This document shows, in pieces, positions 12,461 to 29,448 of a stretch of DNA of 64,000 nt; the stretch's first letter is position 1, and every line of letters begins with the position of its first letter. The notes beneath the pieces were generated by a model. That model was given only the letters and a program-made list of their open reading frames with translations. It searched no databases and had not been told where the DNA came from. This stretch comes from Candidatus Poribacteria bacterium (lineage in GTDB: Bacteria > Poribacteria > WGA-4E > PCPOR2b): assembly GCA_965208325.1 (NCBI GenBank), contig OZ242326.1, forward strand, positions 2,304,001 to 2,368,000. Direction: 5' to 3'. Both the position numbers and the translations under genes were made by a program.

Positions 12461-15400
12461 ATGGACCTTCTAGCGAAACGTCAGATTGTAATTTTAGCTG
12501 CATTTATGTTTCTTTTAGTTCAGAGTTTGACTTATGGCGAAACAACGGTTTCAATGAGTCCGTCTACCGTGGAGTCCCCCGCCGTTGGGCAGCAGTTGAG
12601 TTTCAGTATCAACATTACGGGCGGAATAGATGTATCGTATTTTAGGGTAACCTTGACATTTGATCCAACGGCGCTCTCGTATGTCAGCATTTCATCCGGA
12701 GGTTACCTCGGCAATACGGTGTCTGACGATACCCAGACCACTTATGATTCAATAAGATACCGAGAATCAATCAGCACTGGGGTAGACGGGGACGGCACGT
12801 TTGCCACTGTTACCTTTACAGTCCTTGAGGCCAAAGACTCCACAATCGGACTGTCAGCCGGTCTTATTAACTCAACGAACAATTTAATAGATAAAACAGT
12901 CGAAGGTGCTACCATTACTAGTCCGCAAACGACTGGAATATCCATCAGTATAGTAAGCAGCCCGGGGTCTGGAAATCCCGGCGACGATTTGACGTATACG
13001 GTTGAGGTTCAGGAGGACGGAACCGCCGCCTCTGGTAAAACAGTCTCCTTTAGCATCACTTCCGGCGATGGGAATGCGTCTCTGAACCCCGCAAGCGCAA
13101 CAACCGACACCGATGGACAAGCTTCCACGACTATAACGCTTGGACAAAATGCGTCCGGATTCTATACAGTTACGGCAACCGTCGACTCCAAATCTATCAG
13201 CGGTGCTGCAAAAGTTATCCCTCTGCCCGCAGAAATTTCAATGAGTCCGTCTAGTGTGGAGTCCCCCGCCGTTGGACAGCAGTTGAGTTTCAGTATCAAT
13301 ATTAAGGGCGGAATAGATGTGTCGTATTTTAGGGTAACCTTGACATTTGATCCAACGGCGCTCTCGTATGTCAGCATTTCATCCGGAGGTTACCTCGGCA
13401 ATACGGTGTCTGACGATACCCAGACCACCAATGATTCAGTAAAATACCGAGAATCAATCAGCACTGGGGTAGACGGGGACGGCACGTTTGCCACTGTTAC
13501 CTTTACAGTCCTTGAGGCCAAAGACTCCACAATCGGACTGTCAGCCGGTCTTATTAACTCAACGAACAATTTAATAGATAAAACAGTCGAAGGTGCTACC
13601 ATTACTAGTCCGCAAACGACTGGAATATCCATCAGTATAGTAAGCAGCCCGGGGTCTGGAAATCCCGGTGACGATTTGACGTATACGGTTGAGGTTCAGG
13701 AGGACGGAACCGCCGCCTCTGGTAAAACAGTCTCCTTTAGCATCACTTCCGGCGATGGGAATGCGTCTCTGAACCCCGCAAGCGCAACAACCGACACCGA
13801 TGGACAAGCTTCCACGACTATAACGCTTGGACAAAATGCGTCCGGATTCTATACAGTTACGGCAACCGTCGACTCCAAATCTATCAGCGGTGCTGCAAAA
13901 GTTATCCCTCTGCCCGCAGAAATTTCAATGAGTCCGTCTAGTGTGGAGTCCCCCGCCGTTGGACAGCAGTTGAGTTTCAGTATCAATATTAAGGGCGGAA
14001 TAGATGTGTCGTATTTTAGGGTAACCTTGACATTTGATCCAACGGCGCTCTCGTATGTCAGCATTTCATCCGGAGGTTACCTCGGCAATACGGTGTCTGA
14101 CGATACCCAGACCACCAATGATTCAATAAGATACCGAGAATCAATCAGCACTGGGGTAAACGGGGACGGCACGTTTGCCACTGTTACCTTTACAGTCCTT
14201 GAGGCCAAAGACTCCACAATCGGACTGTCAGCCGGTCTTATTAACTCAACGAACAATTTTATAGATAAAACAGTCGAAGGCGCTGCGATTACTAGTCCGC
14301 AAACGACTGGATTATCCATCAGTATAGTAAGCAGCCCGGGGTCTGGAAATCCCGGTGACGATTTGACGTATACGGTTGAGGTTAAGGAGGACGGTAGCGC
14401 CGCTTCAGGAAAAACAGTCTCCTTTAGCATCACTTCCGGCGATGGGAATGCGTCTCTGAACCCCGCAAGCGCAACAACCGACACCGATGGACAAGCTTCC
14501 ACGACCATAACGCTTGGACAAAATGCTTCCGGCTCATATACAGTTACTGCAACCGTCGGCTCCAAATCTATCACAGGTACGGCAACGGTTAACCCGCCGC
14601 CTACGGGAGTTACCATCAGTGTAGTGACTGCACCAGGATCTGGCGACCCCGGCGACGAATTGACGTTTACAGTTGAGGTGCAGGAGGACGGAAGTGCCGC
14701 CTCTGGAAAAACAGTGTCATTCAGTATCACTTCAGGCGATGGAAATGCGTCTCTGAACCCTACAAGCTCAACAACCGACACCAATGGACAGGCTTCCACT
14801 ACGATAACACTCGGAAACAATGCGTCCGGAATCTATATGGTTACTGCAACCGTCGACTCCGAATCCGTTAACGGTGCCGCAACAGTTACCCATCCGCCTG
14901 CGCAAATTTCAATGAGTCCGTCAACCGTAGAGTCCCCCGCCGTTGGACAGCAGTTGACTTTCAGTATCAATATTAAGGGCGGGATAGATGTGATGAGTTA
15001 TAGCACAACCGTGAGATTTGACTCCACGGCGCTCTCGTATGTCAGCCTTACGTCGGGAAATTACCTCAGCAGTTCGCAGATTAACGCTACCTCCGTCACC
15101 AATGATGTATTAAGGCACTCTGGATCACTCTCACTGGGTGAGCCAAGGGTTGGAGTAGATGGCGATGGCACGATTGCCACAGTGACCTTTACAGTCCTTG
15201 AGGTCAAGGATTCTACGCTAAGCCTGTCAGCCCGCCTTAGAGACTCATCGTCACAGTTAATAGATGAAACAACCACAGGCGCTACCATTACCAGTCCGAC
15301 AGTATCACAGACAGGATTATCAATATCTGTAGTAACCAGCCCGGGGTCAGGTAACCCCGGCGACGAGTTGACGTTCTCTGTCGAGGTGCAGGAGGACGGG

Positions 15401-29448: not shown

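Follow-up and report, generated by a model that had tools for sequence, protein, structure and literature searches.

Introduction

The textbook connectors of cellulosomes are cohesin-dockerin pairs, which synthetic biology also favours as a tool. The primary scaffoldins of cellulosomes, such as CipA of Clostridium thermocellum with its nine type I cohesins and ScaA/ScaB of Acetivibrio cellulolyticus, are non-catalytic, secreted proteins with many tandem cohesins, whose dockerin-tagged partners are encoded elsewhere in the genome. To our knowledge, the function of such pairs outside the cellulolytic Firmicutes is largely unknown. Here, we describe two adjacent giant genes (gene 1 and gene 2) that encode 9 and 5 cohesin modules, respectively, interspersed with immunoglobulin (Ig)-like Big_1 modules, in a 64-kb stretch of DNA (the window, i.e., all 64,000 nucleotides analysed, from contig OZ242326.1) of Candidatus Poribacteria, a non-Firmicute host as had been claimed in a preliminary description of this DNA. 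The reading that we prefer, with a rough probability of 0.55, is that the giant proteins are a non-cellulolytic, surface-anchored, acceptor-only scaffold, which is predicted to bind, and thereby load, dockerin-tagged proteins exported by the same C-terminal tail.

The idea of a multi-cohesin protein with a C-terminal domain (CTD) tail is not unprecedented, the closest published case being Ca. Stygibacter (Cloacimonadota), for which Williams et al. (2021, PMC8542988) proposed a scaffoldin-like protein with several cohesins and a CTD anchor. Dockerin proteins are found in the same genome there too, and both cases are inferred from sequence alone. The Ca. Stygibacter protein has CBM2/CBM3 and its dockerins are located on GH18, GH57, S8 and C25 enzymes, suggesting degradation (PMC8542988), whereas here there is no carbohydrate-binding module (CBM), the spacers are Ig modules and the cargo consists mostly of proteins with binding domains.

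Compared to cellulosome scaffoldins, the present system belongs to a diderm poribacterial symbiont, contains Big_1 modules instead of Pro/Thr linkers, has no CBM and ends in a type IX secretion system (T9SS)-type tail instead of an S-layer homology (SLH), sortase or type II dockerin anchor; in addition, its cargo lacks carbohydrate-active enzymes (CAZymes), and the dockerin lies inside the protein, with a linker and the sorting tail after it. Two of five scaffoldin features tested are present (multi-cohesin non-catalytic protein; dockerins in the genome), and three are absent (CAZyme cargo, CBM and anchor type). Invasin/intimin-type Big_1 arrays and giant T9SS adhesins also have long tandem arrays of ~99-aa Big_1 modules and a C-terminal T9SS sorting domain, but here 14 cohesins are interspersed among them, and it is the homologues in congeners that are exactly such plain arrays. 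Non-cellulosomal cohesins (Archaeoglobus fulgidus 2XDH; Clostridium perfringens 2JH2 and 2W1N) share the fold and were found at ranks 5, 13 and 48 of the structural matches given below, although each is a lone module of an enzyme or small protein rather than part of a multi-cohesin scaffold. Searches of an open-access library that combined Poribacteria with cohesin and/or dockerin gave incidental papers only, and one with T9SS terms listed a single paper that mentions Poribacteria in passing. A 2024 genomic survey of cellulosome bacteria left out metagenome-derived genomes (PMC11557425).

Architecture of the two giant genes

Gene 1 starts with ATG and encodes 3060 aa; gene 2 starts with GTG and encodes 2415 aa, its database copy beginning 7 codons later. 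Pfam scans detected Cohesin (PF00963, cut-off 24.1 bits) in 9 stretches of gene 1 (178.7 bits) and 5 stretches of gene 2 (93.8 bits), as the preliminary description had counted them, and a six-frame scan of the genome placed 14 Cohesin matches inside these two frames. Big_1 (PF02369) was detected in 14 stretches of gene 1 (269.7 bits) and 13 of gene 2 (265.1 bits), and single modules alone score 36.8 and 44.2 bits (cut-off 34.9). The order of modules was read by anchoring on one short motif per module type (C, cohesin; B, Big_1), which gave CBCBCBBCBCBCBBBCBCBCBB for gene 1 and CBCBBBBBBBCBCBCBB for gene 2, each followed by one divergent Big_1/Invasin_D3 module (44.2 bits in gene 1). With this extra divergent Big_1, the order described previously was reproduced exactly. 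The C modules are 128-137 aa long and the B modules 99 aa, except for one per gene at 111 aa. The features of both genes, all on the forward strand, are as follows:

12461..21643 (+), gene 1: signal peptide, 9 cohesins, 14 Big_1, X region, T9SS-type tail
12545..12934 (+), gene 1 cohesin 1 (type a; 94-96% identity to cohesins 2 and 3)
12935..13231 (+), gene 1 Big_1 module, 99 aa (36.8 bits alone)
13232..13621 (+), gene 1 cohesin 2
13622..13918 (+), gene 1 Big_1 module
13919..14308 (+), gene 1 cohesin 3
14309..14902 (+), gene 1 Big_1, two modules
14903..15313 (+), gene 1 cohesin 4
15314..15610 (+), gene 1 Big_1 module
15611..16021 (+), gene 1 cohesin 5
16022..16318 (+), gene 1 Big_1 module
16319..16723 (+), gene 1 cohesin 6 (module used for the structure model)
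16724..17614 (+), gene 1 Big_1, three modules (297-nt tandem array)
17615..18025 (+), gene 1 cohesin 7 (99-100% identity to cohesins 8 and 9)
18026..18322 (+), gene 1 Big_1 module
18323..18733 (+), gene 1 cohesin 8
18734..19030 (+), gene 1 Big_1 module
19031..19441 (+), gene 1 cohesin 9
19442..20374 (+), gene 1 terminal Big_1, three modules (third divergent, Invasin_D3-like match)
20375..21361 (+), gene 1 X region, 329 aa, all-beta, pre-tail
21362..21640 (+), gene 1 T9SS type-A sorting tail (Por_Secre_tail / FlgD_ig)
22201..29448 (+), gene 2: 5 cohesins, 13 Big_1, X region, tail
22294..22677 (+), gene 2 cohesin 1
22678..22974 (+), gene 2 Big_1 module
22975..23361 (+), gene 2 cohesin 2
23362..25440 (+), gene 2 Big_1, seven modules (297-nt tandem array, 6.9 copies by Tandem Repeats Finder, TRF)
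25441..25839 (+), gene 2 cohesin 3
25840..26136 (+), gene 2 Big_1 module
26137..26541 (+), gene 2 cohesin 4
26542..26838 (+), gene 2 Big_1 module
26839..27246 (+), gene 2 cohesin 5
27247..28179 (+), gene 2 terminal Big_1, three modules
28180..29166 (+), gene 2 X region (87% identity to the gene 1 X region)
29167..29445 (+), gene 2 T9SS type-A sorting tail

On inspection of the translations, both N-termini look like Sec signal peptides (basic n-region, hydrophobic run, ..YG, then E/A), and the common LLPNYPNPFNPETWIPY tail is present in both proteins, as had been noted for both features; the final 517 aa of the two proteins share 91% identity. Pfam and NCBIfam scans detected no catalytic family in either protein, which agrees with the absence of a catalytic domain reported earlier. 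In addition, no CBM family was found by the Pfam scan, and no dockerin by the Pfam scan or by a frame scan with a hidden Markov model (HMM). The remaining Pfam names (PKD, MG2, DUF11, CARDB, YtkA and others) are Ig-like families that overlap the B modules.

Tandem Ig arrays with a 297-nt unit were detected by TRF. In both genes, junctions between cohesin and Ig modules are bridged by contigs from sponge-metagenome runs of three other studies (X8, 12659-13108 and 22345-22931; X5, 16021-16372; X6, 15388-15679), so the mosaic did not arise as an artefact of assembling this genome. A total of 19 runs, all sponge metagenomes, hold gene 1; there is no RNA run among them and they are silent on expression. 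In run X6, one 2078-nt contig fuses position 15302 to 19439, with 4136 nt skipped and 2 other letters inserted. The net loss of 4134 nt is in frame and would delete ~5 cohesin-Ig units of gene 1; this joint may represent a shorter real allele or an assembly-graph jump between homologous repeats.

Fold and diversity of the cohesin modules

Judged by sequence and predicted fold, the C modules are true cohesins. An AlphaFold2 model of gene 1 cohesin 6 has a mean confidence (pLDDT) of 92.4 and is all-beta with no helix. When it was compared with the PDB by Foldseek, the matches listed were all cohesins or cohesin-like modules (probability 1.00, TM-score 0.64-0.81; 0.77-0.80 for the top ten). These are of types I and II, one of them being an archaeal cohesin from outside cellulosomes. 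The solved cellulosomal cohesins ScaA/ScaB were also matched by a sequence profile built on the modules, with an E-value of 5.6e-9. A failure of these modules to fold as cohesins had been named beforehand as fatal to the scaffold reading; the confident model and its similarity to solved cohesins, within the range that top-ranking matches show, are what that reading predicts.

The cohesin alignment behind the model was composed of 13 of the 14 modules, two single-cohesin paralogues and one cohesin-like stretch. The 14 modules represent about 10 types, with two groups of three that are 94-100% identical and 54-83% identity between types; CipA is likewise described, in a preprint abstract, as having some near-identical and other divergent cohesins (bioRxiv 10.64898/2026.01.19.700288). 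Among the 10 non-redundant types, the mean pairwise identity is 0.50 for strands 8-3-6-5 versus 0.83 for strands 9-1-2-7-4 (Mann-Whitney p 9e-6). We take strands 8-3-6-5 to be the dockerin-binding face of solved complexes, placing the cohesin topology on the DSSP strands of the model. On this assignment, the 10 types diverge mostly on the sheet with which solved cohesins contact dockerin. A complex prediction from the cohesin and dockerin alignments scored 0.01 (mark 0.32), had no controls and speaks neither for nor against binding. The cohesin-like stretch, which is located in a WD40 dockerin protein (L023), shows 21% identity; it matched no Pfam family at E <= 0.1 and had no match to the cohesin HMM, and it was therefore not counted as a cohesin.

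Dockerin proteins of the same genome

The genome is a single contig of 4.71 Mb with a completeness of 95.6%. It contains 10 matches to Dockerin_1 (PF00404), all over the cut-off, one of them only jointly with its neighbours in the frame. An HMM built from these 10 was run against 28,642 six-frame frames and, at E <= 0.01, added no dockerin to them. A genome devoid of dockerins, together with modules that bind none, was the other outcome named in advance as refuting the scaffold; with 10 such proteins found genome-wide, the scaffold is not refuted on this point. In the alignment, all 10 dockerins have the duplicated Ca-loop/helix with two DxNxDGxxDxxD-type segments and invariant Asp columns. 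Every one of these proteins also carries the sorting tail common to the giant proteins and has the same layout, in which a signal peptide is followed by the cargo domains, the dockerin, a linker (about 60-80 residues) and the tail. Because scaffolds and dockerin proteins have the same export tag, they are expected to reach the same compartment.

The preliminary description had called the cargo unknown, which no longer holds, since it can now be listed as binding domains, FGE-sulfatase and metalloprotease-like proteins. WD40 propellers and FGE-sulfatase domains are present in two dockerin proteins each; TIG, YWTD plus CARDB, and LRR plus Big_1 with a Metallopep match occur in one protein each, and a further one is a cadherin-repeat protein of 2533 aa. 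Two of the 10 have few assigned domains. HExxH motifs were seen by eye in three. No family of glycoside hydrolases (GH), polysaccharide lyases (PL), carbohydrate esterases (CE) or CBMs was detected in any of the 10 at E <= 1e-4. The term "cellulosome-like" is thus appropriate for the architecture and is limited to it, because none of the dockerin proteins has a GH or CBM.

In the same genome, a single-cohesin gene encoding 349 aa is located 275 nt downstream of a dockerin gene. Two near-identical secreted proteins of this size, each with one N-terminal cohesin, are encoded (L033 and L034; C1:1623007-1624056 and C1:3483796-3484845). Their C-terminal part of ~190 aa belongs to no Pfam family, they have no sorting tail, and they end in a ..TSWGxLKxxR-like motif that recurs C-terminally in the relatives P0040, P0045 and P0050.

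Sorting tail, X region and export machinery

Por_Secre_tail (PF18962) and FlgD_ig were detected at both C-termini, PF18962 with 58.8 and 67.7 bits (cut-off 27). TIGR04183, the NCBIfam model of the T9SS type A sorting domain (cut-off 23), scores 34.2 bits for gene 1 and, under the cut-off, 21.0 bits for gene 2. The earlier proposal of a C-terminal sorting tail in place of an SLH or sortase anchor is supported by these matches. Since about 61-62 frames genome-wide bear the tail, it is a general export tag in this genome. With regard to the secretion machinery, the evidence is partial: two PorV-family (PF19572) proteins (63.7 and 29.3 bits, cut-off 27) and two tail-bearing C25 peptidases (about 272-274 bits) were found, as well as a SprA-like frame of 2196 aa whose match is below the cut-off. 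A search of the genome for GldK returned generic FGE-sulfatase domains only, also below the cut-off.

The X region that precedes the tail gave only generic adhesin/pilin matches in the PDB by Foldseek (TM <= 0.26). In a wide VIA-align comparison, the best Z was 8.1, covering residues 216-327 only, a common beta-sandwich; residues 1-202 matched no Pfam family above the cut-off. The X region is a recurrent pre-tail module, present in 11 XT-type frames and several Ig-array frames of this genome and with 9-13 matches in each congener. Several copies adjoin TauE/SafE paralogues, which suggests that segments carrying TauE and a surface protein have been duplicated.

Comparative analysis across Poribacteria

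Species-representative genomes were scanned with the cohesin profile, and 80 loci were kept, 79 from Candidatus or uncultured Poribacteria and one from an "uncultured bacterium". Each of the 31 genomes considered (the present one and 30 relatives) has both domains, the cohesin matches numbering 2-30 and the dockerin matches 3-77. Of the 80 poribacterial loci, 61 have a dockerin frame no more than 6 kb from the cohesin gene; in 44 loci, this frame comes right after the cohesin gene, downstream on the same strand, and the gap is mostly <=230 nt. Among the neighbouring dockerin genes are ones for M36 fungalysin-type peptidases that carry dockerin and tail, and for proteins of ~380 aa with a terminal dockerin. 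The typical cohesin gene at these loci encodes 500-1000 aa with one N-terminal cohesin, often Spondin_N, a partial X region and the tail, and our own cohesin HMM detected no frame with more than one cohesin at any of the 80. By contrast, the genes described here have 9 and 5 cohesins, Ig spacers and no dockerin, and are absent from three congeners. Other arrangements in the relatives are LRR/WD40-cohesin-FlgD_ig proteins and polypeptides that combine cohesin and dockerin ahead of the tail (CDT and DCT frames, and paired matches in ~1400-aa frames).

The present genome has 16 cohesin matches, versus 5, 5 and 11 in three genomes of the same genus. In two of these congeners, the nearest homologue of the giant genes, identified by way of the X region, is an Ig array without cohesin, B11-X-tail in one (X region 69% identity) and B15-X-tail in the other (67%). 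The third congener, which is the closest by its flanking genes (95% identity), lacks such a gene at the corresponding position; its 19.4-kb interval between those flanks (locus L145) contains no cohesin or Ig-array gene, and the locus is therefore variable between species. Database relatives comprise gene 2 itself (P0003, 99.96%), P0004, with 91% identity to the last 1646 residues of gene 1 and the same module order, and P0088, an 883-aa C-BBB-X-tail protein (47-48% identity) that looks like a minimal form. Among the best 150 of 9,667 profile matches, 70 have at least three cohesins, 56 a dockerin, 36 the tail and 4, including P0003 and P0004, an Ig module. As judged from the congener and database sequences, the 9 + 5 mosaic of cohesin and Ig modules elaborates on an Ig-repeat surface protein and is lineage-specific, and the case documents a possible origin of a scaffoldin, given that the congener homologues are plain Ig arrays.

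Proposed function and alternative explanations

According to the scaffold reading, both giant proteins would be exported by the Sec system and carried across the outer membrane by a T9SS-like route via the C-terminal sorting domain, on the surface of a sponge symbiont. By analogy with type-A cargo of Bacteroidota, the tail would be removed and the protein tethered by its C-terminal end, and the X region and the Big_1 modules, putatively rigid spacers, would project a string of 9 or 5 cohesins from the cell. These cohesins may serve as sockets for the 10 dockerin-tagged proteins exported by the same tail. Removal of the tail would leave their dockerin close to the new C-terminus, where cellulosomal enzymes also have it. 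The scaffold would serve, in the sponge mesohyl, to display proteases and eukaryote-like binding domains; because the cargo is not cellulolytic, a multivalent display and adhesion scaffold for life within the sponge is suggested rather than a polysaccharide degrader.

Several points weigh against this reading. No dockerin gene adjoins the giant genes, the nearest being about 92 kb off, and tail-tethered dockerin proteins could not easily reach distal cohesins. The T9SS motor/ring components GldL/M/N had no match in the genome, although the controls were equally silent and absence is not shown. The higher variability of one cohesin sheet may merely reflect weaker structural constraint. In addition, the genomes compared are kin and do not count as independent, which makes the adjacency of cohesin and dockerin genes a case of conserved synteny rather than 61 separate events, and the cohesin-free homologues make a plain Ig-repeat adhesin, with cohesins as an add-on, a possible function. 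One alternative explanation is that the giant proteins are a plain repetitive adhesin or surface fibril, in which cohesin-fold modules are spacers or bind a non-dockerin ligand such as host matrix or glycan. The B11-X-tail and B15-X-tail homologues of the congeners, the generic adhesin/pilin beta-sandwiches matched by the X region and the distance to any dockerin gene are all consistent with it, and non-cellulosomal cohesins of unknown partner are said to be common, as Peer and colleagues reportedly found in 2009. We nevertheless consider such an adhesin somewhat unlikely, considering that the genome encodes 10 canonical dockerins, all on proteins that share the export tag, that cohesin and dockerin genes neighbour each other in an operon-like manner throughout the phylum, and that the cohesins differ mainly on the canonical binding sheet and retain 0.83 identity elsewhere, which is unexpected for inert spacers.

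Scaffoldins and dockerin proteins that both stay tethered to outer membranes might instead cross-link proteins of one cell or of neighbouring cells into a coat or microcolony matrix, as a self-assembling network or cell-cell glue, and would then not load free cargo. Such a network would fit the presence of the same tail on all 10 dockerin proteins, only about 60-80 residues after the dockerin, and the frequent joining of cohesin and dockerin on one polypeptide in relatives; however, the giant proteins have no dockerin of their own and would thus be acceptors only, as primary scaffoldins are, and the tail could lead to tethering or release, neither of which is favoured by the data. We regard this explanation as improbable. 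The multi-cohesin non-catalytic architecture resembles CipA-type scaffoldins, and the Cloacimonadota metagenome-assembled genome with a CTD-tailed scaffoldin has dockerin-bearing GH18 and GH57 enzymes (PMC8542988), both of which would suit a true cellulosome that concentrates polysaccharide-degrading enzymes on insoluble carbohydrate. Such a role is contradicted by the cargo list, in which no dockerin protein has a glycoside hydrolase, lyase or CBM, and neither scaffoldin has a CBM; it is therefore extremely unlikely.

A more specific and rather speculative version of the scaffold reading is that each of the ~10 cohesin types, having diverged on the face that binds dockerin, selects one of the 10 dockerin proteins, which would create an ordered, address-coded surface array of ~100 nm, made up of proteases and eukaryote-like binding domains, that arose within one species by insertion of cohesins into an Ig-repeat adhesin. 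This is doubtful at present; if true, it would amount to a "designer cellulosome" of natural origin that now serves interaction with a sponge host. The set is small and closed (14 cohesins of ~10 types, two scaffolds, exactly 10 dockerin proteins, one export tag and no cellulase), so a full 10 x 10 binding matrix is feasible, which would bear on whether the cellulosome principle is used by uncultured symbionts of sponges for the display of proteases and eukaryote-like adhesion domains.

Genomic context and additional observations

The other genes of the window are housekeeping genes or encode repeat proteins (HEAT, TPR, FG-GAP/ASPIC, NHL), and an operon of the giant genes with such neighbours was rejected for this reason. 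A consensus scan of 10900-30800 was uninformative, with 24 promoter-like sites versus 18.4 +/- 5.1 in shuffled sequences and 8 terminator-like sites versus 19.8 +/- 4.9, and within it no terminator was seen after gene 1 or gene 2. Horizontal transfer was also considered on the basis of composition, but the difference in GC content between the genes (0.51-0.55) and the flanks (0.45-0.53) is too small to interpret.

Several short repeats surround the two genes, including a 19-nt inverted repeat at 12260-12312, about 150 nt upstream of gene 1, and short direct repeats of 19-33 nt in 3-4 copies at 29698-29997, downstream of gene 2. Short-side read joints connect three regions, one upstream of gene 1, one between the two genes and one downstream of gene 2, and suggest that short intergenic repeats are common to them. 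A gene of the phage-integrase family (312 aa) and, next to it, a 350-aa open reading frame without family lie on the reverse strand at 33135-35112, which is 3.7 kb downstream of gene 2.

Elsewhere in the window, a gene for a CesT/Tir-chaperone-family protein (137 aa), a type III-style chaperone unexpected here, adjoins a PspA/IM30 gene (38962-40137, reverse strand). A 616-aa protein (42822-44672, reverse strand) joins a DCC1-like thiol-disulfide oxidoreductase with LMF1 and LMF1_C (Lipase maturation factor), a family best known from eukaryotes. The 1639-aa protein encoded at 58358-63277 (reverse strand) contains RHS repeats, DUF6531 and Laminin_G_3, which suggests an RHS/YD-type polymorphic toxin-like protein. 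Finally, an acyltransferase-domain gene (36589-37932, 447 aa) is intact, while its homologues in the congeners G001 and G003 (83-84% identity) have 3-4 in-frame stops, mostly TGA, within the match, and may be pseudogenes or reflect frame or annotation effects.

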